In this document: positions 1 to 11,649 of the stretch, piece after piece
Numbering within the stretch: the first letter of the stretch is position 1
Layout: every line of letters begins with the position of its first letter
Source of the DNA: a virus
Lineage: Duplodnaviria > Heunggongvirae > Uroviricota > Caudoviricetes
Direction: 5' to 3' (one strand)
Virus record (IMG/VR): IMGVR_UViG_2837719392_000001
Length of the DNA: 15,147 nt
Program-made: the position numbers and the translations under genes
The notes under the pieces: model-generated
Databases searched by the model: none
Told to the model about the DNA's origin: nothing
Seen by the model: only the letters and a program-made list of their open reading frames with translations

Positions 1-20
1 CCTCCTTTTCATTTCTCCAT

Positions 21-50
21 AAAAAAAGAGATGGTAGCCCATCTCCTTTT
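21..50. terminator. Intrinsic terminator-like hairpin; strongest on the minus strand (U7), possibly bidirectional
   Basis: GAGATGG(28-34)/CCATCTC(39-45) stem, A7 at 21-27 and TTTT at 47-50. Confidence 0.6.
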
Positions 51-69
51 CGATATATTATACAATTTA

Positions 70-99
70 AGTATACCATGAAAGGGTGCATTTTGACAA
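70..99 (-). promoter_or_regulatory. sigmaA-type promoter firing leftward
   Basis: Minus strand TTGTCA-18-TATACT with TG extended -10. A GAAAAGGAGG SD lies at positions 10-1 for a gene beyond the window edge. Confidence 0.55.
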
Positions 100-121
100 A
101 AAACAGTTAAAGTGATATGAT
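93..121 (+). promoter_or_regulatory. sigmaA promoter for ORF 148
   Basis: TTGACA(93-98)-17 nt-TATGAT(116-121) with TG extended -10; its -35 overlaps the divergent promoter. Confidence 0.75.
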
Positions 122-147
122 TTTGATTATAGAAAGGATTTTATAAT

Positions 148-978
148 ATGATAGAAAAATATATATTTGAAGATATCAATACCTTAACTTACGGTCATAT
201 AAAAGGATATGAAAAAATGATAGAAAAGATAGGTGCAGACTATCTGGAAGAACATGACTATAAGGTAGCCAATATCTATTCGATGTTAAAACAAGATAAA
301 GATAATTTTCAAAAAATAGCACCTGAGTGCTTCAGCTATGGGGCAAGAAGAACTCATTTACTTCCAAATAAATATCTTATGATGATGACAGCAGTACAGA
401 TTGTAGAAACGCTAAAGCTTTATAAGGAGAACAATCTATTTGATATCCATGTACTAGAAAAGTGGAAAGAAGTCTTACATGATGATAAGAAGTCTAAAAC
501 TTTATTAGATAGAATGATAAAAAGACAGTATAAAATGAAAAAGAATAGTCTTTATTTAAAGCCCTACGAATTTTATGAGGAAACGAACTTGATTAGTGTC
601 AAGGATGTGACGACATGTCTTTTCCCATATTTATGTATACAAAGAAATCTGGTCAAGAAAGAAAAGCTGGAAAGATATTTTGAAAAGGACGTTTTCCTAA
701 GTGATAAACTTATGGATTATAAAAAGGTTCTAGAAAGAATCAATGAATTGTATACAGGGTCAGCATTTGAACAGATTCAGGAAATGTGTACGCTCAAAGA
801 ATGCGAAAGAATTATCTTTTTGGAATATTATGAGCAATATGGATGGAATGATGAAATTCTAAGATGGCTGATTACACTTTTTGAATCCAGAGAAAAAGTG
901 AATGAAATGCCTTGCATAAAGGGAAATCCAACTATTTTTTACGTAAATGATGTGAGAAATTTCATAAAACAATTATAA
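148..978 (+). CDS. Hypothetical protein, 276 aa
   Basis: Long ORF, AGAAAGGA RBS, consensus promoter upstream; no recognisable motif. Confidence 0.85.
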   Translation: MIEKYIFEDINTLTYGHIKGYEKMIEKIGADYLEEHDYKVANIYSMLKQDKDNFQKIAPECFSYGARRTHLLPNKYLMMMTAVQIVETLKLYKENNLFDIHVLEKWKEVLHDDKKSKTLLDRMIKRQYKMKKNSLYLKPYEFYEETNLISVKDVTTCLFPYLCIQRNLVKKEKLERYFEKDVFLSDKLMDYKKVLERINELYTGSAFEQIQEMCTLKECERIIFLEYYEQYGWNDEILRWLITLFESREKVNEMPCIKGNPTIFYVNDVRNFIKQL

Positions 979-1033
979 GCCCAATTTATGATAAAATAAT
1001 AGAGAAGTCGCTTTTTAGCGGGAGGGGAGGATA

Positions 1034-1522
1034 TTGAAAGTTTCTCGCATTTTTCTGGCTTTGATGTGCGCAGGAATGCTTGTAGGATGTACAGACTATA
1101 GTTTGCCAAAAGTGGCACCAGGAAATCCACAGATAATCAGAGTATCAGAACCGGATTCCAAGATGATGTTGACGCAATCAGCGACATCCATTTTGACAGC
1201 CTGTTCATCTCTGAATTCTCAATTGCTTGTGTATCTGGAGGATACAGTCAAACCTACAACAGAAATGAAGACATCGTTGGAAAATGGTATCAATACGGCA
1301 CTTGATTCCATTACACAGACAAAAGATGAATTAAATGCTGTTCATGTGGCAACAAGTTGTCAGGACAAACAAAAAAGCATTGTTACATTAGCTAATAGCA
1401 TGATAAAGACATTGAACTCGATGCTACAAGCTATTGATGAAAATAACTTTACTGAATTGAAGCAATTACAGACTCAATTCAATAATGACGCAACACAAAT
1501 GCAGTCATATTCAATTAATTAG
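1034..1522 (+). CDS. Lipoprotein, helical-bundle type, 162 aa (TTG start)
   Basis: GGAGG RBS, basic N-terminus, hydrophobic core, lipobox LVGC, amphipathic helices. Confidence 0.85.
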   Translation: MKVSRIFLALMCAGMLVGCTDYSLPKVAPGNPQIIRVSEPDSKMMLTQSATSILTACSSLNSQLLVYLEDTVKPTTEMKTSLENGINTALDSITQTKDELNAVHVATSCQDKQKSIVTLANSMIKTLNSMLQAIDENNFTELKQLQTQFNNDATQMQSYSIN

Positions 1523-1534
1523 AAAGGACAAGGT

Positions 1535-2215
1535 ATGAAAGAATTAAAAAAAATGACAATGGAAGAATTATCCTTCCTGTCAAAAGAAGAAATGGAACAA
1601 ATACCACCACAAGATTTCGGCGTTTTTGTAAATGCTGAAAGTCGATATAGGCTTGATGCCTTGACTTGGGAAACGTGGGACAAGTTGACCTATTCTCAGT
1701 TAAGTCATATGAGCGCAAATGTATTTTCCCTATTAAAGGAAGATATCATTCAAAGGTTAATAGACAAATTCAAAGACAATCAGGAAGTTGTCATAATCAA
1801 TAAAAATATTAATGGAAAGACAGTTCCAGTCCAGGTACTATTAGTTTTTACTCTGGAAAGAGCGAAAGAATTAAATAAAGAAATGAAGAAAATGATAAAC
1901 GAATCGTTTCAGATATATCAAAAACATAAAGGGAAAAATGTTGAAGATATACCTGAATCAGATATCATGGAGATATTGATGCTAAAGAGGGTAGATGAGG
2001 AGACAATCCAACTGCTCAAACAGTTTGATACTTTGCCATATTTGCCATATCTGGTACAACCCAAATATATACTACATAAATTCCAGCTGAACAAGTATCA
2101 TAAAATTGTGAAGGAATATTTGCGTAGTCATCCTGAGCAATTCGTTGGGTATAGAATACAGAAGCATACCTATTATAGATATGAAGATATTATCAAAGTA
2201 TTAGCAACTCAATAA
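1535..2215 (+). CDS. Hypothetical protein, 226 aa
   Basis: AGAAAGGA RBS, tightly spaced after the lipoprotein gene, followed by a terminator. Confidence 0.85.
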   Translation: MKELKKMTMEELSFLSKEEMEQIPPQDFGVFVNAESRYRLDALTWETWDKLTYSQLSHMSANVFSLLKEDIIQRLIDKFKDNQEVVIINKNINGKTVPVQVLLVFTLERAKELNKEMKKMINESFQIYQKHKGKNVEDIPESDIMEILMLKRVDEETIQLLKQFDTLPYLPYLVQPKYILHKFQLNKYHKIVKEYLRSHPEQFVGYRIQKHTYYRYEDIIKVLATQ

Positions 2216-2233
2216 TCTATCTCATTGTTTTTG

Positions 2234-2259
2234 AAGGGACTTTTTGAAGTCTCTTTTTT
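2234..2259 (+). terminator. Intrinsic terminator
   Basis: AAGGGACTT/AAGTCTCTT stem followed by a T-run, just after the stop at 2215. Confidence 0.6.
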
Positions 2260-2292
2260 GTCTATCATATTTTAGAGGAGGTAGATAGAGAA

Positions 2293-2994
2293 ATGAGTAA
2301 TTTTGCATATGTTGGAGGAGTTGTCAAAGCTCCTGTTTATTTTGACAATGATTATTTATGCATAGATTTAGATATTTATAGAGCCGAATTGAAGAAATCG
2401 GAAGTTCTAACAGTCAAAACCAAAAATCCATTTGCCATCACAAAAGCAACGGATAAAGTACATGAAGGGCAGTATTTCATGACGACTGATGCAAAATTAA
2501 AGACTATACCATACATAAGAGTGAAGGAGTTAGAATGTTCAGAATGCTTTTATGTAAAGAGTCAGAAAGTAAGAAGTGAAAGAACGGAAGTCGTTTTTGA
2601 AGATTTTACGGTCATGAACATTGATAATCCAGAAATGGCATATGGAATCAATAAAGTCTTTCTGGACGGGAATGTTTGTTCTCCATTGAATTACAGGGAA
2701 AAGGATGGGAAAGCTTACTGCAAGTATAAGATGGCTGTCAATGATACTGTCTATGATTCAGTAGCCGAGTATCCTTATATTGTTGCATTTGGGAAAGACG
2801 CGGAATTATCCAATAAGTATTTAAAAGAAAAGTCTCGTGTCTTTGTTGAAGGAAGTATACAGGAAAGAGTCATAAAACAGACTTCACATTTTATTTGTCC
2901 TGATTGTGGAACAGAAGCAGATAAAAAGATACCGAATATCGTAAGAGAGGTCATTGTAAGCAATGTATTGTTTCTTAATAAGGAAAAAGAATAG
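2293..2994 (+). CDS. ssb: Single-stranded DNA-binding protein-like, two OB folds each with a CxxC insertion
   Basis: The C-terminal half matches the SSB pattern (NKVFLDGNV...YCKYKMAVN...IVAFGKDAE...KSRVFVEGSIQER). The N-terminal half has a parallel pattern. GAGGAGG RBS. Confidence 0.75.
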   Translation: MSNFAYVGGVVKAPVYFDNDYLCIDLDIYRAELKKSEVLTVKTKNPFAITKATDKVHEGQYFMTTDAKLKTIPYIRVKELECSECFYVKSQKVRSERTEVVFEDFTVMNIDNPEMAYGINKVFLDGNVCSPLNYREKDGKAYCKYKMAVNDTVYDSVAEYPYIVAFGKDAELSNKYLKEKSRVFVEGSIQERVIKQTSHFICPDCGTEADKKIPNIVREVIVSNVLFLNKEKE

Positions 2995-3005
2995 AGGTGC
3001 ATTGT

Positions 3006-3758
3006 ATGTTTAAAAAAAATGAAGACTGGAATATTTGGGAAGAAGAGGATGTGATTGAAGAACCCAAAGAAAATGCAAACAAAAAAGACAAGAAAAAAAG
3101 AAAGCTATTGAAAAGAAACAAGAAAACCGAGAAAAAGGAAGAAGAAGTATGGGACGAAAGTGGAGAGATAGACTATTTAAGTGAAGATAGTGATGCCATC
3201 TATTCAAAGGATGATGAAGTCAGATACAGCAAAAAGAAGATTGCTATCTTTTCTATCATTGTCGTATTGATAGGACTATTTGGAATAGGTTATTTCAATA
3301 CGGATTTTGATGAAAATAATAAGGCATATGTTGTCAGCTATGACCTTCACTATGAAAGAAAATATGTAGAAAAGGCAGATGACCTTTATAATTATTGTTT
3401 GAATTTAGAAGAGGAATTAAAAACGATTATTCCAGCCCTTGCATCAAATAGCCTTGAAACAACGAATGAAGTTCAAAAAATCCTTCAAACACTCAATGCA
3501 AAAACTGACAATGTATCTCGCTATACAGAAGTCCCACAGATTATGGCAAACTACAATGATAATCTCATCAGTTTTGCCATGTCTACAGAAACCATGCTGG
3601 AAACAATGCTTGGAAATTATACATCCAGCGATTATATGGCGTGGGCTGAAAGTGCATATAATGATTTTGTTGACTCACTGAATACTTTAAAATATTTAAG
3701 AAGTCAGATTGACTTTGTTATATATAGAAATGTATATGGAGGTGAAGAGAATGAATAA
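3006..3758 (+). CDS. Single-pass membrane protein: charged cytoplasmic N-terminus, helical extracellular domain
   Basis: AGAGG RBS before ATG 3006; K/E/D-rich N-terminus; TM segment IAIFSIIVVLIGLFGIGYF; overlaps the next gene by 8 nt. Confidence 0.85.
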   Translation: MFKKNEDWNIWEEEDVIEEPKENANKKDKKKRKLLKRNKKTEKKEEEVWDESGEIDYLSEDSDAIYSKDDEVRYSKKKIAIFSIIVVLIGLFGIGYFNTDFDENNKAYVVSYDLHYERKYVEKADDLYNYCLNLEEELKTIIPALASNSLETTNEVQKILQTLNAKTDNVSRYTEVPQIMANYNDNLISFAMSTETMLETMLGNYTSSDYMAWAESAYNDFVDSLNTLKYLRSQIDFVIYRNVYGGEENE

Positions 3759-4965
3759 TGATTCCCTTATCATGCAATACGATGCACAGATTAATAGGAT
3801 TGAAAAAGAATATAGAGAAGCTCAATCAAGGGCAAAGAGTCTAAGAAAAAACCTCGAAACAATCGCTGAAAAAACCTGCAATTTTAAATATGCTATCAAA
3901 CAACTGGGTGGCCCTAATGAAATCTTCAAGATGAGTGATGGCCAGTTAAGAGATTTCATCATTACCAATATCATAGAGCAGAAGCAGGAATTTATGCAGA
4001 ATATTCGAGAATTACAGCAATTATATCTGGAATGTCAAAGAGAAAATCAGGAATTGGCTTCTAAGGTGTTGTCGCTTCAGGAAGCATTGGAGAGAAATGA
4101 GGGAAATAATAAAATCTTGCATGCATCTACACCACCTCCTCCAACATTTTCAAATAGTGAAGAGCCTTCTCAGGATAAAGCAGTGGTAGACGACAAGCTG
4201 ATTATGGGAGGAGAAGTGTATGATATTGCAAGAGTTGTTCAAAGACTCACAGTATACCAGGAAGAAATCGTCAAAGTCATGGGAGAAAAGGGTTATTCGG
4301 AAACTGCCGAGATTTTTGGTGAGGTTATGAAAAGGATTGATATTCAGGAAACAACACTGAAGAATGAGATGAGAAACCTTTCTGAAAAGCTTGTTGTAGA
4401 GAGTGAATCCATTTCAACATTTCTAAGAAGAAACCTATCGCTGTATAGATTAACGCAACTTGGAGAAGCAGTCTATAAACGATTAACAGAAAAAACTCCT
4501 GTTAAAGCTCAAAGGGATAAATTGGAATCACAGCATTCAACGCTTGAACATGCCTATCTCATAAAAGATACTGCGAGTATCCTTGAAACTTTAGGTTATA
4601 CAAATGTCACATATGATTCAAAAGACAATCAGATTCAGGTTGCGGGTGGTAACAGATATGTCCCAGATATCAGTGCCGATTTTTCTCCTACAGTCAAGAC
4701 TTACTGGGAATGCGAATTAGGACATCATAAAGATGCAGACTTTTTTGAAAAGTTACAGAAAGCAGCAAAGGTGACTGATACGCTTTATGTCATTACTCCA
4801 CGTAAGGAAGTATCTGATAAAATGAAAAAACAGATTGGTAGATATAAGGCTTCAGTTGTGACAAAACAGATGAAAACGCAGTTGATAGTTTTTGTAGGGA
4901 CAATCAGTCAATTGAAGACAAGACAGTTGTTCTCTAATAAGGATTGTCAAATAAAAATAGGGTAG
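3751..4965 (+). CDS. Coiled-coil + winged helix + PD-(D/E)xK-like domain protein, replication-relaxation-family-like, 404 aa
   Basis: GGAGGTG RBS before ATG 3751; heptad coiled coil; PPPP linker; wHTH ending LYRLTQLG; then EH...VPDIS...YWECELG...EKLQKA. The family call is pattern-based. Confidence 0.6.
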   Translation: MNNDSLIMQYDAQINRIEKEYREAQSRAKSLRKNLETIAEKTCNFKYAIKQLGGPNEIFKMSDGQLRDFIITNIIEQKQEFMQNIRELQQLYLECQRENQELASKVLSLQEALERNEGNNKILHASTPPPPTFSNSEEPSQDKAVVDDKLIMGGEVYDIARVVQRLTVYQEEIVKVMGEKGYSETAEIFGEVMKRIDIQETTLKNEMRNLSEKLVVESESISTFLRRNLSLYRLTQLGEAVYKRLTEKTPVKAQRDKLESQHSTLEHAYLIKDTASILETLGYTNVTYDSKDNQIQVAGGNRYVPDISADFSPTVKTYWECELGHHKDADFFEKLQKAAKVTDTLYVITPRKEVSDKMKKQIGRYKASVVTKQMKTQLIVFVGTISQLKTRQLFSNKDCQIKIG

Positions 4966-4994
4966 TTATTCTAAAAGAATGACTATCCTTTTTT
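4959..4994 (+). terminator. Intrinsic terminator of the left gene cluster
   Basis: 14-bp stem 4959-4972/4976-4989 (2 G-U) followed by a T-run. Confidence 0.85.
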
Positions 4995-5000
4995 GTATAG

Positions 5001-5023
5001 AAAAAAAGCCACATAAGTGGCTC
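5001..5023 (-). terminator. Intrinsic terminator of the minus-strand operon
   Basis: AGCCAC/GTGGCT stem with A7 on the plus strand (U7 on minus). Confidence 0.75.
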
Positions 5024-5038
5024 TTAAAAAGTGTCTAT

Positions 5039-5569
5039 CTATGGAATATTGTTTATAATCTCGCTATTTTCATCATACAATTGAAAATTATTAGCAGAAG
5101 GGTTATTGCTTCCATCTATCAAGTAGATATCTAATATATATTCATTGTTTAGTTCATTAGTATATGATTTGTTTTGATTTTCAAAAGAGTATTTGATAGC
5201 TTTTACGTTGTTTTTACCATATACAACAATTATACTTCTCTCGTTTTCGAGATAATTAAAAGTATCAATATCCTGCGACGAGTCAGAACTTCCATAAAAA
5301 TTGTATTTTGTTGAAAATAAATCATGATTTTCTTCGTATATCACAAGATGACATTCAGCAGCATTGTCCTGATATAGAACGAAATAAAGGTCATCTTTAT
5401 ATTTTATTTTCTCAATAGACTCGAAATTTTTATCTCTTTGAGAAATGTCCTGAATCAAGAAGGGTAAAAAATCCTGAGAACGAGATAATATAACCACCCA
5501 TAAAAGTGAAAGAACAAGTATTCCACTTAAAAATATATAAAATAAATGAATCCTTTTCATCTTACTCAT
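5039..5569 (-). CDS. Membrane-anchored hypothetical protein, 176 aa
   Basis: N-terminal TM helix, beta-rich C-terminal domain; overlaps the VanZ stop. Confidence 0.8.
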   Translation of the reverse strand: MSKMKRIHLFYIFLSGILVLSLLWVVILSRSQDFLPFLIQDISQRDKNFESIEKIKYKDDLYFVLYQDNAAECHLVIYEENHDLFSTKYNFYGSSDSSQDIDTFNYLENERSIIVVYGKNNVKAIKYSFENQNKSYTNELNNEYILDIYLIDGSNNPSANNFQLYDENSEIINNIP

Positions 5570-6101
5570 TATTTGCTATCTGATTATATAAGCTTTGCAC
5601 CTTTGGATATAGACAATGTATTGGATAATAAATCAATATTCCTATACATATACTGATGAGATGAATGATGATATCACCGAAATCATATACATACTGCACA
5701 TATAAAGTTAAAAAATTAATAAGTAACTGTAAATTTTCTATACCAAATATAATAGCAACAGAAATCAAAATTGTATTTTTAAGTGGAAATTCTTTTCTTA
5801 ATATAAATCCAAATGGAATAAATAATACAAAATGGAAAAGAGTGTATTCGGGTAGTAACTCCAATTTTAATATAGGATGATAGAAATCAACAGCCCACCT
5901 TAATTCTTCTCCAAAATGATAATTTTCTCCAGGATTTAAAACAAAAGGGAAAAATAAGACACTAATGACAAATGATATATATATTCCCACAAATCCTGAA
6001 TAAAGTAATGAATAATTTTTAAAAAAGTAAAGAAAAGAGAATATAATTATTGCAATCACAATAAACAAAGGTATAGGAAATTGAATGATGTTCGAATCCA
6101 T
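5562..6101 (-). CDS. VanZ-family membrane protein
   Basis: Multi-TM; HFVLFIPFGF and IENLQ motifs and a terminal D..DI segment typical of VanZ-like proteins; GGAG RBS before ATG 6101. Confidence 0.75.
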   Translation of the reverse strand: MDSNIIQFPIPLFIVIAIIIFSFLYFFKNYSLLYSGFVGIYISFVISVLFFPFVLNPGENYHFGEELRWAVDFYHPILKLELLPEYTLFHFVLFIPFGFILRKEFPLKNTILISVAIIFGIENLQLLINFLTLYVQYVYDFGDIIIHLISICIGILIYYPIHCLYPKVQSLYNQIANNE

Positions 6102-6102
6102 T

Positions 6103-6544
6103 TTAATCTCCAAAAATCACTCTTATTTGCCCATAGACTTTTCTACCAGAATATATATCTGCATAAGAGCTAGTAAGTCTAATAGAATATTTACCAGAAG
6201 GTAATTCACCCCCAGCTTACAAATTTTCCAGAAGTCATCGCAACTGTTTTCTCTTTACCTGTTCTAGTTCCATCTCTAACGAGCTCAAAAGTCATTGTTT
6301 CTTTTGGCATATTTGTATCTGGATATAATGTAATACTAATGCCACCTTTATTTGGAACATAACTACTAATACTAGCAGGAGTTTCATAATAATTACTAAA
6401 ACTATAGGAATATGTAACAGTATTAGCAGTACGTGTACTTATGTTTGGTTGCTGACTAGAAGAAACATTTTCTAAAGCATAAGTATTAGAAATCATACCA
6501 AAAGATAATAAACATGCTAAACATGCACAAACTATTTTTTTCAT
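6103..6544 (-). pseudogene. Secreted beta-rich protein (~146 aa) interrupted by a +1 G in a G5 run
   Basis: Sec signal peptide and AAGGAG RBS. The ORF stops at 6206 right after GGGGG (C5 at 6209-6213). Removing one G extends it (..WGELPSGKYSIRLTSS..GQIRVIFGD*) to TAA 6105-6103, 1 nt before the VanZ ATG. Confidence 0.7.
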
Positions 6545-6587
6545 ATTATATTTCTCCTTAATATTTGTAATTTACGGCCGCAAATGT

Positions 6588-6617
6588 ATTTTATCACGTA
6601 ATACATGCTAAATGTAA
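6588..6617 (-). promoter_or_regulatory. Promoter of the minus operon with an overlapping inverted repeat
   Basis: TTACAT-18-TAAAAT with TG extension; ATGTATT(6584-6590)/AATACAT(6600-6606) inverted repeat overlaps the -10. Confidence 0.45.
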
Positions 6618-6703
6618 TAAACTTTTTTAAAGATTATGTTAAGATAATGTAAATAGAGAAGAGAACCTTGAAAACGACATTTAGGAAATAAACAAATTAT
6701 ATA

Positions 6704-6732
6704 TTGAAAAATTTAGGAAAATATGTTATAAT
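6704..6732 (+). promoter_or_regulatory. Strong sigmaA promoter at the head of the non-coding region
   Basis: TTGAAA(6704-6709)-17 nt-TATAAT(6727-6732) with TG extended -10; no ORF with an RBS follows. Confidence 0.8.
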
Positions 6733-6738
6733 AACAAA

Positions 6739-6875
6739 TGAAAGAAAGGAAGTGTACCAATATTAATTTATTTTAATTAAAACAGCTTTAGAATCTGCCA
6801 TATAACAATTAAAGCTAAAAAATATGTTATGAATCAAGGTACACTATGACTTCTTTTATAGAAGTCTTTTTCTTT
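6739..6875 (+). ncRNA. ~135-nt structured small RNA or attenuator leader
   Basis: Bracketed by the promoter and a terminator (GACTTCT/AGAAGTC + TTTTTCTTT, 6848-6875). Stems AGTGTACC(6751-6758)/GGTACACT(6838-6845) and AGCTTTA(6784-6790)/TAAAGCT(6810-6816). Confidence 0.55.
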
Positions 6876-6892
6876 ATCAATTTTATAAAGGT

Positions 6893-6992
6893 TTCATTCA
6901 CACCTGGAGATAGTGTTTCTCAATTTATCTGTCTGGAAAGGAGGATTAAAGACAAGACAGGAGATGAAGTGAATGGGGTTTTATCAGCCCAC
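6893..6992 (+). ncRNA. Structured RNA element (long imperfect hairpin), possibly a 5' part of the downstream large RNA
   Basis: TTCATTCAC/GTGAATGGG, TTTATCT/AGATGAA and CTGTCT/AGACAG nested pairings; loop contains GGAAAGGAGG. Confidence 0.35.
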
Positions 6993-7039
6993 ATAGAATT
7001 TGTAATCTGCGGAAAAACTTATGCCTGTATTGTATAATT

Positions 7040-7530
7040 TCTGGCTCCCAGGACATTATATAGTGCAGGGTTAACATAAGGGCAAGACCAATGAGATACA
7101 ACCAACCTCCATCATGTCTAAAGTTGGTTTCTATGAAAATCGATACTGATATTCTAGTTGCTATTGGTGTATAGGATGTTGAGCTCGTAAACCCTCAAAG
7201 CCTAGATGGCGAGGTGGATAAGATATCCTATATTGTTAAAGTCTAGATAATGCCTGGTGAGTTCTACCATGTGATATTTATATTGCTAAAATGACGGCGT
7301 GGAAGATGGTACCAGCAGACGAGGGAGGTCTGGACTGGTAGGGGGCAGTTCCCTTTTTGAAGGTGTTTTGGAAACCCATGGAAGCATGGCAAAAGTCATG
7401 TAACTGTAACTGAGAAAACCTCGCGACGACTGACCGACCGACGGAATACTCAATCCCTAGATGAGATAGTTTATCTATCTCCGTGTTTGATAGACCAATG
7501 CGTCTAGTCAAACCCTAGGGGGATTTTTTT
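7040..7530 (+). ncRNA. Large ornate non-coding RNA, probably ROOL class (boundaries approximate)
   Basis: ~43% GC by hand count in a ~30% GC window, with no credible ORF. Many helices and long-range pairings (7170-7179/7223-7232; 7209-7215/7418-7424; 7311-7320/7328-7339) and a 3' multibranch domain ending in a T-run. Motif order resembles ROOL sequences as I recall them; not verified by alignment. Confidence 0.6.
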
Positions 7531-7538
7531 ATTTACAA

Positions 7539-7690
7539 GGGTGCTTCCTGCTCAGAGCTTCTCTCCCTCTAGAATGAAAGGTGGGAACGAGCCCCTGTTT
7601 TTATCGAATGTTTTTATAAATTATGTAAGAACAGTTAGGGCAATGGCGAGCTTCCTTGGAAGCTCTGGGTGGGAGCACCTCCGTGCTCTA
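7539..7690 (+). ncRNA. 6S RNA-like long hairpin with central bubble
   Basis: ~21-bp closing stem 7540-7561/7659-7679 with 3 G-U pairs favouring the plus strand; central bubble; apical stem GCCC-CTGTTTTT/AAGAACAG-TTAGGGC; alternative release-type hairpin 7648-7654/7659-7665. Confidence 0.45.
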
Positions 7691-7714
7691 CTTTAATGCA
7701 AAAGTTGGCTTTCG

Positions 7715-7845
7715 TAATAAAAAATTATCATTTTTATCCATATTTAGCCTTCTAATGATAAAAAATTATCACTCATATCACAAAAATAGTGTTTCTATCA
7801 TAAAAAGTAAGCTTTTGAGCCAAAGTGAGTGGTAAAAAAATATCA
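7715..7845. repeat. Three copies of the 16-bp palindrome TGATAA-N4-TTATCA
   Basis: 7715-7730 TAATAAAAAATTATCA, 7756-7771 TGATAAAAAATTATCA (perfect), 7830-7845 TGGTAAAAAAATATCA. Confidence 0.7.
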
Positions 7846-7870
7846 TTTCTGTACAAATTAAAGAAATATC

Positions 7871-8100
7871 TATTCTTATATAATAGAAATATTCTTCTCT
7901 TACATCAGTAAAAGTTGTTTACTTTTGTAATATATTTCTTCTTATGTAATAGTAAAAGTTATTCACTTCTGTAACAGAAAAGTTAATTCATACATAAAGA
8001 GAAAAGTTTGATAGGGTTTTGATAGATTTTAGATAGTATTATTTTTTCTTTTGTATATAAATATAAGTTAAATAGATTATAATTAGGTTTTATAAGGTAT
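7871..8100. repeat. Very AT-rich region with iteron-like direct repeats; putative origin or protein-binding array
   Basis: ~20% GC. AGTAAAAGTTGTTTACTTTTGTAA(7907-7930) vs AGTAAAAGTTATTCACTTCTGTAA(7951-7974); AGAAAAGTT at 7976 and 8000; TTCTTAT(A/G)TAATAG at 7873 and 7939. Confidence 0.5.
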
Positions 8101-8124
8101 TGCACTTATAATAGAATAATAGTT

Positions 8125-8165
8125 TTCTCAGAGAAGGTTACAGAGGCGTTCTCATTCTCAGAGAA
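8125..8165. repeat. Two copies of the palindrome TTCTCAGAGAA
   Basis: Exact copies at 8125-8135 and 8155-8165 (30-bp period). Confidence 0.7.
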
Positions 8166-8371
8166 TACTTTTTTTGTCTATATAATTCAAGTTATGCTTG
8201 AGTTGGGAGCATATAGTGAGGGTTTTATAGGAGTGATTATTAACATAAATTAACAAAAATAAGTCACATCTCAAGTTATACTTGAATAAGACAGAAAATA
8301 TATCTTTTGTTGGGATGTTTATCAAGATTATTTTGAGTATTGTTTTAGAAAACAGATGTTTTTGTTAGTTT

Positions 8372-8401
8372 TTCTCATAACATTAGTAATAGTGGTATAA
8401 T
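8372..8401 (+). promoter_or_regulatory. Antisense promoter into the 3' end of the 8428-8616 ORF
   Basis: TCTCA(8373-8377)-18 nt-TATAAT(8396-8401) with TG extended -10. Confidence 0.55.
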
Positions 8402-8425
8402 AAAAGAGCAGGGACAAGTCCCCGC
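8402..8425 (-). terminator. Terminator of small ORF A
   Basis: Minus-strand GCGGGGA-CTTG-TCCCTGC followed by TCTTTT, 3 nt after the stop. Confidence 0.65.
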
Positions 8426-8427
8426 GT

Positions 8428-8616
8428 TTATTGCCTTTTCTGGCTCTTGTAGAATGTATCTACTAAATTGATTGTTACATCGGCAGTGATTGTAAGAACT
8501 AATGTGTCGAGAGGTAACATTTGTAGTGTTGTGAGCCATTCTATGATGTCCACTAAAATAATGAACAGAATGGCTTTCCAACTTTTCTTCAAGGCAGACA
8601 ACAGTCTGCTTGCCAT
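8428..8616 (-). CDS. Small hydrophobic peptide A (62 aa), type I toxin-like
   Basis: GGAGG SD sequestered in a 9-bp hairpin (8630-8638/8647-8655); hydrophobic helices; basic C-terminus; own promoter and terminator. The SD-ATG spacing is long (13 nt). Confidence 0.55.
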   Translation of the reverse strand: MASRLLSALKKSWKAILFIILVDIIEWLTTLQMLPLDTLVLTITADVTINLVDTFYKSQKRQ

Positions 8617-8656
8617 AAAGACATTTTCACCTCCGTCGTTTGGAAGCGACAGAGGT

Positions 8657-8696
8657 ATTTTATTATATATATAAGTTAAATTCAAGTTATGCTTGA
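8657..8696 (-). promoter_or_regulatory. Promoter of peptide A with the operator over the -35
   Basis: TTGAAT-17-TAAAAT on the minus strand; palindrome 8682-8696 overlaps the -35. Confidence 0.65.
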
Positions 8697-8901
8697 GTCT
8701 AGACTGCATAAAAAGAGCTTATATAGATATAAAGTTGTCTATAGCGTATGTTCAATACAAGTTTATACTTTAAAAATACCTATAACACCATCTTTTTTTG
8801 TATGTGAGTTAGCTTAGACTAATATAGTTTGAAGAGCGTTGAGGAACCCCGTTATCGACGGTGTTATGAACAGTGTTATATGTTAAAGAGACAACATTCA
8901 T

Positions 8902-8941
8902 ACAAGTTATACTTGAATATGCCTACATTATTACATAAAAT
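8902..8941 (+). promoter_or_regulatory. Promoter of peptide B with the operator over the -35
   Basis: TTGAAT(8913-8918)-17-TAAAAT(8936-8941); palindrome 8902-8916; leader hairpin GCGTACCAG/CTGGTACGT follows. Confidence 0.65.
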
Positions 8942-8974
8942 AAAAGCGTACCAGCTCTAAATATATCTGGTACG

Positions 8975-9178
8975 TTGGTGATTATTATTTTAGGCGGTTG
9001 TTCGCAGGTACTTTTTCATATGTGCCTTCAATTCGCTATTCAATATATCACCGATATATTCCACCTCAATGACTACCAAGGAATTGTCGTGGAAGTTATC
9101 GTGATTGCAATGGTGAATATTGTTGTCATAATAATTAACAATTTAAGAAATGACACTGGACAACAGGCCGAAAAGTAG
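8975..9178 (+). CDS. Small hydrophobic peptide B (52-67 aa, start uncertain), type I toxin-like
   Basis: Strong TM segment IVVEVIVIAMVNIVVIII; promoter upstream; weak hairpin plus T6 downstream; no clear SD (possible starts TTG 8975, GTG 8978, ATG 9020). Confidence 0.5.
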   Translation: MVIIILGGCSQVLFHMCLQFAIQYITDIFHLNDYQGIVVEVIVIAMVNIVVIIINNLRNDTGQQAEK

Positions 9179-9206
9179 GGAACATACAAGATTTCCCCGC
9201 TTTTTT

Positions 9207-9235
9207 ATTATAGCATAATAAATAGTATATTGAGA
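9207..9235 (-). promoter_or_regulatory. Antisense promoter into the 3' end of the 8975-9178 ORF
   Basis: Minus-strand TCTCA-18 nt-TATAAT with TG extended -10; same geometry as 8372-8401. Confidence 0.55.
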
Positions 9236-9247
9236 GGTTTTGTCTTA

Positions 9248-10573
9248 TTAAACATATGGTGTAATCAACCAATCAATCAAATTAATAGATTTAATACCAT
9301 CATAAGAAGTATCTAAGCCTGTATTTAAAGAAAGAACAATTTTTTCATAGTTATCCTTTATTTTTTGAAGTGGTGTTAATTCTCTATCTCGTACTTCTTC
9401 ACTTTCCATTGATTCAGTAACTTGAATATAAAGTTTCTCATCAGTCTTGGTGGCGATAAAATCTACTTCTAAATTGTCAACCTTTCCTATAGAAACATCA
9501 TAACCTCTACGAAGCAACTCTAAATAGACAACATTTTCTATAGCATGTCCACTATCTCTGTTTCTGACACCTAACAGGTAATTTCTAAGTCCAATATCAA
9601 CGATATAGTATTTACCAAGTGTTCTTAAGAATTCTTTACCTTTGATATCAAATCTTTTGATATCATAAAAAAAGTATGATTCTAACAATGCATTTATATA
9701 AGCTTGAACCGTATGAGTACTTGGATTACCTTTTCGTTTCCCATCCTCAAGAAGCCCTTCATTGACTAGAGTGTTACCAATAGAAGAAACAGAAATATTG
9801 TTGCCTATATTATCTGCTAAAAATAGAATAATCTTTTTTAGAAGAACTGGGTCAGTAATTCTTTTTTGTCCTCTTCGATTTTCTCTCTCAAGAATATCTC
9901 TCATAATAACCGTAGAATAAATACCCTCAAGTAATACAAATGCTTTTTCTTGGTCAAGTCCTACATCAGCAATACCTGGCATTCCACCAAAACGCATATA
10001 AGCTTCAAAAAGTTCTTGAAGGTCATAATATTCCCCGTTTTTATCAACAACTTGTTTGCGCGTGCCTCCTAAAGCACTTTTTCTTTCCCTAACTTCGAAA
10101 TCATGAAATATTATAAATTCCATAAATGATAGAGGTAATACCTTAATTTCTATACATCTTCCTGACAAATAAGTTGCATATTCAGAGGAAAGCATATAAG
10201 CATTAGAGCCAGTTACATAGATATCGCAATTGAAATCAACACGGAAAGAGTTAATAGCATCTTCCCAGTTTGGAACTCTTTGTACTTCATCAAAGAAAAG
10301 ATACATTCTTTTGTTAGGTATAATGTGTTGTTTAACATATTCATAGAAAGATTCACTATTCATATCCTTATAGGCATGAGATTCAAAATTCATTTCAAGT
10401 ATCTGGTCATCATTAATCCCGCTTTCTTTTAAATGTAGAATCATAAGCTTTAATAGACTGGATTTTCCACATCTACGAATTCCTGTTACGACTTTGACAG
10501 GCTCAGTGTCTTGAAATGCTATGATTTTATTCAAATATAAATCTCTTTTTTTGAGTTTATGACTATCAATCAT
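9248..10573 (-). CDS. AAA_14-family ATP-binding protein with C-terminal DUF4143 domain, 441 aa
   Basis: Walker A GIRRCGKS, Walker B FFDEVQ, TGSN motif, FGGMP, C-terminal ENVVYLEL...EVDFIA; GGAGGT RBS. Confidence 0.9.
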   Translation of the reverse strand: MIDSHKLKKRDLYLNKIIAFQDTEPVKVVTGIRRCGKSSLLKLMILHLKESGINDDQILEMNFESHAYKDMNSESFYEYVKQHIIPNKRMYLFFDEVQRVPNWEDAINSFRVDFNCDIYVTGSNAYMLSSEYATYLSGRCIEIKVLPLSFMEFIIFHDFEVRERKSALGGTRKQVVDKNGEYYDLQELFEAYMRFGGMPGIADVGLDQEKAFVLLEGIYSTVIMRDILERENRRGQKRITDPVLLKKIILFLADNIGNNISVSSIGNTLVNEGLLEDGKRKGNPSTHTVQAYINALLESYFFYDIKRFDIKGKEFLRTLGKYYIVDIGLRNYLLGVRNRDSGHAIENVVYLELLRRGYDVSIGKVDNLEVDFIATKTDEKLYIQVTESMESEEVRDRELTPLQKIKDNYEKIVLSLNTGLDTSYDGIKSINLIDWLITPYV

Positions 10574-10622
10574 TCGCTATACCTCCTTTAAGCCTAGTAT
10601 AGCATAAACTTTTTAAAAACTC

Positions 10623-10690
10623 AACTTTATGCACTGAAATGCAGAAAGTTCTATTATTTTACAATTATTTGCATTTGATAGCAGAAACTT
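10623..10690. repeat. Two related partly palindromic sites with 40-bp period upstream of the AAA gene
   Basis: AACTTTATGCACTGAAATGCAGAAAGTT(10623-10650) and AATTATTTGCATTTGATAGCAGAAACTT(10663-10690). Confidence 0.5.
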
Positions 10691-10920
10691 ACAAAAATGA
10701 AGTCTTTTTGTCAATTATCTACAATAATTTGATGATTGATAGGGGGTTTTGAATGTATTGAAACCTCCTCATCATCTCAATCAATCCTAAACAGAATGAT
10801 TTCGAGTAGAGTTTTGAAGGAATGTGTCTAGAAATCACTAAAAAATAGGGGTAAGACACACCATGACTATAAAAATGGGGAGATTTTTAGTATAATTTGA
10901 GGGTGAAAGGAGAATTAAAT

Positions 10921-11649
10921 ATGAACCATAATGAGAAAAAAGCAATAATAAATGAAATAAAAAATGATATTCAAAAGGAAAAAGAAAAAATTTATAATGA
11001 AATAGAAGAAATAAAAAAAGAAAGAAATTTCAATAAGATAAATATGTTTTTGACTGTAGTTTCACTAGCAGTAAGTGCGTGGATAGGATTTCAAGCAAAT
11101 AATATAGCGACCACATCTAACGAAATTAGTTCTAGACAGGAACCTATTATAACAAATTATTTAGAGTCTAACGAAGAGGTTATTTATAATATTAATCATG
11201 ATAACGTATTATATGAAACAGTAGCAAAGAAACCAAAAATAGAGTTAATTCAAGGCTCATTAACAGAACTATATGGTGTTATTTGCTATGATAAGAAAAT
11301 ACAAAGTGTTAATGAAGTGGACAAAGAACAAAAAGACAATATGAAAGATGCAGATTTAGTTATCGTTAATTGGGGGATGAAAGATGCTTTTCAAATGGAA
11401 AATAACAAAACTTATGATTATGCATTTGTTTATTTAAAGGATGGTAATGGAAATAGCTATATAAATTTAGTATATGTTCAAATAGAATATAAAAATGGTG
11501 AATTTATATGTTCAAGTCCTCAAAAAATAGATGAAATAGAACTATTACAATATAATAGTGGATATCAATATGAAAATACTACATTTAAAGAAATGATAGA
11601 AGACTATCAATATGTTTTAGATGTGTTTAAGACAGTTAGAAATAAGTGA
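10921..11649 (+). CDS. Single-TM membrane protein with N-terminal coiled coil, 242 aa
   Basis: AAAGGAG RBS before ATG 10921; TM segment MFLTVVSLAVSAWIGF. Confidence 0.85.
   Translation: MNHNEKKAIINEIKNDIQKEKEKIYNEIEEIKKERNFNKINMFLTVVSLAVSAWIGFQANNIATTSNEISSRQEPIITNYLESNEEVIYNINHDNVLYETVAKKPKIELIQGSLTELYGVICYDKKIQSVNEVDKEQKDNMKDADLVIVNWGMKDAFQMENNKTYDYAFVYLKDGNGNSYINLVYVQIEYKNGEFICSSPQKIDEIELLQYNSGYQYENTTFKEMIEDYQYVLDVFKTVRNK

Follow-up and report, generated by a model that had tools for sequence, protein, structure and literature searches.

The DNA analysed here is a 15,147-nt stretch of the IMG/VR virus record IMGVR_UViG_2837719392_000001, referred to as the window. Coordinates are window positions unless a locus is named, and the island described below lies on the plus strand. 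Between two minus-strand genes, one ending at 6544 and the other encoding an ATPase (9248-10573), the interval 6545-9247 holds no open reading frame (ORF) longer than 93 aa, and the GC content is 38-47% across 6900-7700, with highs of 45-47%, compared with 22-25% in the flanks. A preliminary description had listed four consecutive structured RNAs behind one strong promoter and proposed a polycistronic or attenuated operon next to a putative replication origin. Comparison of related loci shows that the region 6739-7740 is, as judged from alignment and covariation, a non-coding structured RNA on the plus strand that is conserved as a block. The second and third of the four listed elements look like one fold, which leaves three parts: a leader, a body and a 3' extended hairpin (Table 1).

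Table 1 Features of the island, of the second body found in relatives and of the neighbouring genes (MFE, minimum free energy)
Feature	Coordinates	Strand	Remarks
Three-gene cassette (176-aa protein, VanZ-like protein, 112/146-aa secreted protein)	4965-6678	minus	Lineage A only
A-rich block	6680-6703	plus	Left edge of the module, upstream of the -35 box; nearly invariant in 14 aligned copies
Promoter P1 (-35 TTGAAA, 17-nt spacer, TG, -10 TATAAT)	6704-6732	plus	11/12 plus TG; best site in 6200-8400
Leader, three-way junction	6739-6875	plus	MFE -28.2 kcal/mol, z = -3.0
5' purine strand of leader	6741-6749	plus	
Hairpin P1 of leader	base 6751-6757/6839-6845	plus	Base conserved; top about 20-90 nt, variable in length and sequence
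Terminator T1	hairpin 6848-6866, U-tract 6867-6875	plus	-7.3 kcal/mol in the window
Body A of the large RNA	6876-7535	plus	Takes in the 'long hairpin' and 'large RNA' of the preliminary description
Putative terminator T2	three-way junction 7454-7521, U7 7524-7530	plus	Closed by CCCUAG/CUAGGG, then GGGGGA and U7; junction z = -4.3
3' domain	7536-7712	plus	Branched extended hairpin (7535-7562/7658-7684, inner helices) and small hairpin 7689-7691/7698-7700
A-rich stretch, TGATAA-N4-TTATCA palindrome and U-run	7716-7740	plus	Right edge of the all-lineage block
AAA_14/DUF4143 ATPase	9248-10573	minus	PADLOC candidate defence family PDC-S01, E = 1.6e-151
Body-B unit	L035:5010-5850		About 700-nt structured RNA behind promoter, leader and T1
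Body-B unit	L009 (G001 contig C73):200-1030		Same arrangement; upstream of Csx16-family gene

A non-coding block conserved in four lineages

With a 63-aa ORF of the island and the upstream 411/418-aa protein as handles, 20 related loci were fetched. Island-bearing sequences fall into lineage A (the window, G001, L020-L023 and L037; 96-99% identity to the window), lineage B (L016-L019; about 90%), lineage C (L031-L033; about 79%) and lineage D (L034; about 80%). The non-coding block from 6680 to about 7733-7740 is kept intact in all four (78-98% identity), with neighbouring genes swapped or far more diverged. On the right, similarity extends to 7733 in lineage C, to about 7901 in lineage D and to 8204 between lineages A and B. 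The preliminary description had asked for the synteny of its elements to be checked in relatives, and all parts are indeed co-conserved as one block. The A-rich block at its left edge is probably UP-element-like.

The block and the protein upstream of it have different histories. Between lineages A and B the 411/418-aa protein (window 3709-4965, L016:3520-4755) is about 52% identical, whereas the DNA of their islands agrees at about 90% of positions. This difference points to mosaic recombination at the protein/island junction, and suggests that the island moves or is preserved as a module. At ten loci whose 411-aa homologue is 52-59% identical (L024-L030, L041-L043), protein genes directly follow the homologue and the island is absent there; a further locus, L044, ends about 30 nt past the homologue gene and is uninformative on this point. 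The genes after the homologue at those ten loci encode proteins of 59, about 180 and about 1276 aa, and SAF/CpaB-like and ParA/TadZ-like genes come next. Scans of metagenome and genome collections with the pattern of the invariant core returned near-identical copies only. A search of 81 family genomes and about 400 order genomes had a single match, the metagenome-assembled genome (MAG) that carries the element, and promoter-only matches in other genomes proved to be ordinary protein-gene promoters.

The case for a structured RNA is based on covariation. A first RNAalifold run on the 14-sequence alignment gave 236 pairs, 21 of them with compensatory change. A second run, with RIBOSUM scoring and the promoter kept unpaired, gave 290 pairs; 97.5% of the cells were paired, and both sides had changed in 25 of the pairs (76 cells). 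When the 3' partners were slid by 1-3 columns as a control, the compensatory pairs fell to 0-6. No part of the region lacks such pairs: they occur in the leader, in the 5' part of the body with its long hairpin 7018-7080, in the core, at the T2 junction, and in the 3' hairpin as well as the small one at 7689-7700. The consensus structure was derived from the very sequences on which it is scored, and read on the complement strand 85.3% of its cells pair, as against 97.5% on the plus strand. About 12% of paired cells are G-U and turn into A-C on the other strand. Consistent with this, the segment 7030-7700 folds at -207 kcal/mol on the plus strand and at -176 kcal/mol on the minus strand. The plus-strand bias of G-U pairs, which had been proposed from the window alone, is thus borne out by the alignment.

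The same alignment gives no sign of a protein. None of the ORFs of at least 40 aa in the island is kept across lineages. Variable columns in the three longest window ORFs show no bias by codon position (16/19/11, 15/17/15 and 19/23/23), and the three contain indels of 1, 2, 4 and 5 nt that break the frame, as expected if no protein gene intervenes between the elements. A 77-aa ORF used as bait found no homologues. About 112 public contigs list the 63-aa ORF (window 6846-7037), which overlaps T1 and the body, as a protein. Other lineages have frame shifts in it, and the gene call is most probably false; in practical terms, public gene calls place a 63-aa 'protein' on the island RNA.

No RNA family in Rfam matches the island. 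A search of the window against Rfam 15 with cmscan at gathering thresholds had 0 matches, and at E <= 10 the segment 6500-8200 gave chance-level matches only (snoRNA, rli34, ctRNA), outside the island or below noise. The earlier statement that no described system matches therefore holds for Rfam 15.

Transcription is predicted to start at about 6739, from promoter P1. Promoter-like sites in the region total no more than in shuffled sequences, so that only P1 carries weight. When representatives of the four lineages were scanned and the sites mapped on the alignment, P1 was the only promoter-like site conserved in all of them, with 11-12 points in each. Two internal sites, at 7237 and 7287, reach 9 points but with poor -35 boxes; on the minus strand, no site is common to more than two lineages, and the four-lineage scan found no second conserved promoter between T1 and the body. 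Both the extended -10 promoter of the preliminary description and its failure to see separate promoters for the later elements agree with these results. The lone TATAAT at 7033-7038 that it pointed out is present, in lineage A only, and sits inside a covarying hairpin.

Leader, body and 3' domain

The predicted fold of the leader, which contains the terminator-like hairpin and U-tract attributed earlier to the first element, holds across the leaders of body A and those in front of the second body described below. Within its basal helix the pair 6757:6839 changes from CG to UA. The T1 hairpin is weak, at -5.4 to -7.3 kcal/mol across seven leaders. Before the 3' arm of T1 exists, an antiterminator made by the 5' strand and the left arm of T1 is the MFE structure in 7/7 leaders. 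Complete T1 is favoured over the antiterminator by 2-4 kcal/mol in family A, but in the two body-B leaders the antiterminator is still more stable than complete T1. By energy models only, the leader thus combines a terminator with a mutually exclusive antiterminator, as an intrinsic-terminator attenuator does. In the terminated leader the 5' strand can pair with the U-tail.

The 5' purine strand is able to pair not only with the U-tail of T1 (6867-6875) but also with that of T2 (7524-7531). On these predicted pairings, both termination products could have clamped ends.

The fold of 6739-7535 has a z score of -4.5. Compensatory pairs occur in the 5' part of the body (6932-6934:6955-6957, 7006:7094, 7012:7088, 7021:7077, 7027:7066, 7030:7063, 7032:7061 and 7036:7057) and further 3' (7178:7224, 7269:7300, 7412:7451 and 7490:7508). 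Within the core, the roughly 50 nt of 7309-7358 are almost without variation: one base differs, from G to C, in three near-identical lineage-A copies. The junction 7454-7521 and the U7 behind it are read, on their predicted fold, as the terminator T2.

The discrete 'long hairpin' of the preliminary description (6893-6992) was not recovered, its z score of -0.75 being no better than that of shuffles. Three compensatory pairs support only a sub-hairpin inside it (6929-6934/6955-6960). Full-length folds pair 6890-6905 with 7361-7376, and because the 5' flank of the segment is engaged in this way, the segment reads as part of the large RNA. A rival local pairing of 6895-6901 with 6969-6975 may form instead. 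Palindromic loop motifs, of which few variants exist, were considered as putative kissing sites.

Downstream of T2, the 3' hairpin (7540-7689) folds at -60.3 kcal/mol (z = -4.2) on the plus strand and at -42.1 kcal/mol (z = -2.0) on the minus strand. Five compensatory pairs fall in it (7554:7666, 7591:7647, 7594:7640, 7597:7632 and 7602:7627), and three make up the small hairpin (7689-7691:7698-7700). It had been called 6S-like, and the long hairpin shape stands: as in 6S RNA (RF00013), the domain is a hairpin of about 150 nt with internal loops. The likeness goes no further, since there is no match to the Rfam 6S model at E <= 10, and the domain, unlike the single long 6S hairpin with its central bubble resembling an open promoter, is branched, lies behind a terminator in a larger unit and is found in one mobile-element clade only. 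At the right edge, a predicted helix between 7522-7533 and 7716-7729 has one compensatory pair. The segment 7716-7740 may base-pair with the U-tract of T2, or it may serve as a last, weak stop. Within 7716-7775, at the right edge of the block, are TGATAA-N4-TTATCA palindromes, two of which lie 41 nt apart; a protein may bind there.

A second body behind the same leader

One related locus, L035, represents a sister element; its upstream protein shares 79% identity with the lineage-B counterpart. At the equivalent site it repeats the island's promoter type, 5' strand, hairpin and T1, and behind T1 come about 700 nt of GC-rich non-coding DNA with up to 53% GC (body B). L009 holds the other copy, downstream of a stretch that we take by eye for the end of a pflB-like gene. 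Identity between the two copies of body B is 77.5%, and their consensus fold has 24 compensatory pairs, compared with 0-1 when the partners are slid, and 40 pairs of the body-B consensus break on the other strand. No Rfam family matched body B, and further copies were not found in the family genomes, by blastn against plasmid and phage collections or in pattern searches of IMG/VR. AT-rich repeat zones follow the body-B loci, as they do the island.

Homology between bodies A and B was considered and rejected. Their local alignment score equals the shuffle mean, and models of 6870-7010 and 7378-7540 (R2 and R3) had no match to body B.

Leader and large body are always found together. Across about 250 kb of related loci, models R1, R2 and R3 turned up no orphan copy, and the leader model R1 found no orphan leader in the 81 family genomes either.

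Proposed transcript, alternatives and setting

On the comparative evidence the locus is real. It holds a large, uncatalogued structured RNA whose modular 5' platform is unusual, and the operon idea of the preliminary description is plausible. Its attenuated form keeps the weak T1, the competing antiterminator, the preserved block and the single conserved promoter, and loses the count of four separate RNAs. The account that we cautiously favour, and hold to be somewhat probable, is that P1 drives one plus-strand unit comprising an attenuated leader, a large structured RNA of an uncatalogued family and a 3' domain, the product being a trans-acting, exchangeable cargo. Co-transcription, the transcript ends, action in trans and the biological role are what we infer from sequence and models.

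In this account, one strong sigma-A-type promoter (6704-6732) would drive a single non-coding unit. Within the leader, the first ~135 nt, pairing of the 5' purine strand with the left arm of T1 would allow read-through; after termination at T1, the 5' strand would instead pair with the U-tail and close a small stable RNA of about 135 nt. Transcription past T1 would yield an RNA of about 790 nt (about 6739-7531), a multi-domain body ending at T2 with its GC-closed three-way junction and U7. Read-through at T2 would add the 150-nt extended hairpin domain, and the unit would end near 7735, giving a form of about 960-1000 nt. The product would be a self-contained trans-acting structured RNA comparable in kind to ROOL or GOLLD. 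We prefer this kind to a primer or a leader because of the nearly invariant core, the covarying multi-domain fold, the exchangeable body and the lack of a conserved downstream gene.

Several observations weigh against this account. There are four effective lineages, and many compensatory changes are common to lineages C and D, so that independent events are few. The core region 7150-7520 hardly varies and is too conserved to check the fold, and the two RNAalifold runs disagree there. The folding energy of the leader has no strand preference (z = -3.0 on the plus strand; -29.4 kcal/mol and z = -3.1 on the minus strand), and its orientation consequently rests on P1, the terminator geometry and the strand bias of the body. 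T2 looks efficient, and the 3' domain may therefore seldom be transcribed. Finally, T1 is a conserved hairpin with a U-tract, which would also fit a set of independent RNAs in which P1 makes only the ~135-nt leader as a small RNA, and the large RNA and 3' hairpin come from promoters invisible to a sigma-70 scan or from processing. The self-closing of the terminated leader, from 5' strand to U-tail, and the advantage of complete T1 in family A would favour such an arrangement. We nevertheless regard it as unlikely, given that no second conserved promoter lies between T1 and the body, that neither leader nor body occurs without the other, and that in body-B leaders the antiterminator is more stable than T1.

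The proximity to replication genes raises another possibility, that the transcript enters the AT-rich repeat zone (7715-8165) and there primes or licenses replication of the element, much like ColE1 RNA II, a replication primer controlled by RNA I. The island lies at the end of a replication module (dnaE, SSB and others), an AT-rich zone follows both here and at the body-B loci, GC skew over the RNA is positive, and a structured transcript of several hundred nt pointing to such a zone beside replication genes does resemble RNA II. Two terminator-like structures intervene between promoter and zone, however, and there is no sequence or model match to RNA II. Conservation of the repeat zone is limited to lineages A and B, the two closest, and the island is missing from sister elements that have the same replication genes. 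Nor is there an antisense counterpart: no minus-strand promoter-like site in the leader is conserved in more than two lineages, the Rfam RNAI/ctRNA match is not above noise, and the chance-level ctRNA_p42d match lies outside the island. A primer, moreover, would need neither a nearly invariant core of ~50 nt nor a covarying multi-domain fold. Together with the failure to find an initiator gene, these results leave the origin link made in the preliminary description unsupported, and we consider a primer role improbable.

Two further readings seem to us highly improbable. Long imperfect inverted repeats on a mobile element could act as DNA, as a single-stranded or cruciform site for transfer, packaging or single-strand initiation, but a strong conserved promoter and terminator geometry are found on one strand, the G-U cells become A-C on the other, and the compensatory changes include A-U to U-G. 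The downstream-facing promoter and an attenuator of the kind typical of leaders could belong to a long cis-regulatory leader of plus-strand genes; yet no downstream gene is conserved, the block being followed, depending on lineage, by small ORFs, by a 323-aa gene after about 1 kb or by the minus-strand ATPase gene.

The trans-acting RNA that we favour invites comparison with ROOL and GOLLD, which average 581 nt and often exceed 800 nt, respectively, occur in phages and prophages, often near tRNAs, have no known function and both form RNA-only cages (PMC5737381, PMC12286853). The island RNA resembles them in size class (body about 650 nt, transcript about 790-960 nt), in its multi-domain covarying fold and in its location on mobile DNA. 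In GOLLD, too, conservation is higher in the 3' region than in the 5' region (PMC5737381, PMC12286853). In contrast to both families, the 15-kb window has no tRNA neighbours (ARAGORN found no tRNA in it), the carrier has few phage hallmarks, and an attenuator leader is not mentioned for ROOL or GOLLD in PMC5737381 or PMC12286853. Neither the ROOL model (RF03087) nor the GOLLD model (RF01998) matched, whether at gathering thresholds or at E <= 10, and for ROOL the relatives L016, L031 and L034 likewise had none. Because both covariance models fail and tRNA neighbours are lacking, the island RNA is, by these searches, not a member of either family.

Transcription attenuators rely on competing, mutually exclusive terminator and antiterminator helices. 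The island leader shares with them a promoter-proximal 5' strand that pairs with the left arm of the terminator, mutually exclusive folds and a weak terminator. It differs in that a non-coding RNA, not a gene, lies downstream and in that the top of its hairpin is hypervariable; neither a ligand pocket nor a leader peptide nor an antisense promoter was found in it.

To our knowledge, only a few large ornate RNAs are known from bacteria, ROOL, GOLLD and OLE among them. The locus adds an uncatalogued large-RNA family with a clear expression layout: a single promoter, a leader that contains a weak terminator, then the body, a further stop and the 3' domain. That one leader precedes two large RNAs unrelated to each other, at a shared site of sister elements, makes its regulation testable, and suggests that giant RNAs are exchanged as cassettes, like accessory genes. 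It is conceivable, if doubtful, that promoter, 5' clamp and attenuator leader form a portable platform from which mobile elements express alternative giant structured RNAs, unrelated to one another, at a single hotspot next to genes of defence type. Were this so, giant ornate RNAs would be swappable accessory cargo, perhaps in conflicts between elements or between element and host, and the attenuator would set the ratio of small clamp RNA to giant RNA.

As to the carrier, positions 1-11195 of the window match contig C50 of a MAG from chicken gut, titled Candidatus Massilimicrobiota merdigallinarum, at 98.8% identity, and more than 100 public contigs carry window proteins, the longest being 256 kb. 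A replication-type module with an SSB gene lies upstream of the island, and in relatives dnaE is just ahead of this module. PHROG matches were obtained for 2/10 window proteins and for 1/10 in relatives. Plasmid and phage collections searched by blastn held no DNA similar to body A or body B, and IMG/VR, searched by sequence patterns and neighbour proteins, gave no match. With few phage-family matches and no similar DNA in these collections, we call the carrier a large mobile element of unsettled type, in chicken-gut Erysipelotrichales-like bacteria.

Immediate neighbours of the block vary. The three-gene cassette to its left is absent in lineages B-D, where the 411-aa gene directly precedes the RNA block; on this comparison the cassette is an indel immediately left of the RNA module. 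At the position of the ATPase gene, other lineages have NERD-domain genes, and on L009 a Csx16-family gene comes after body B. Downstream of the RNA there thus seems to be a hotspot for accessory or defence genes.
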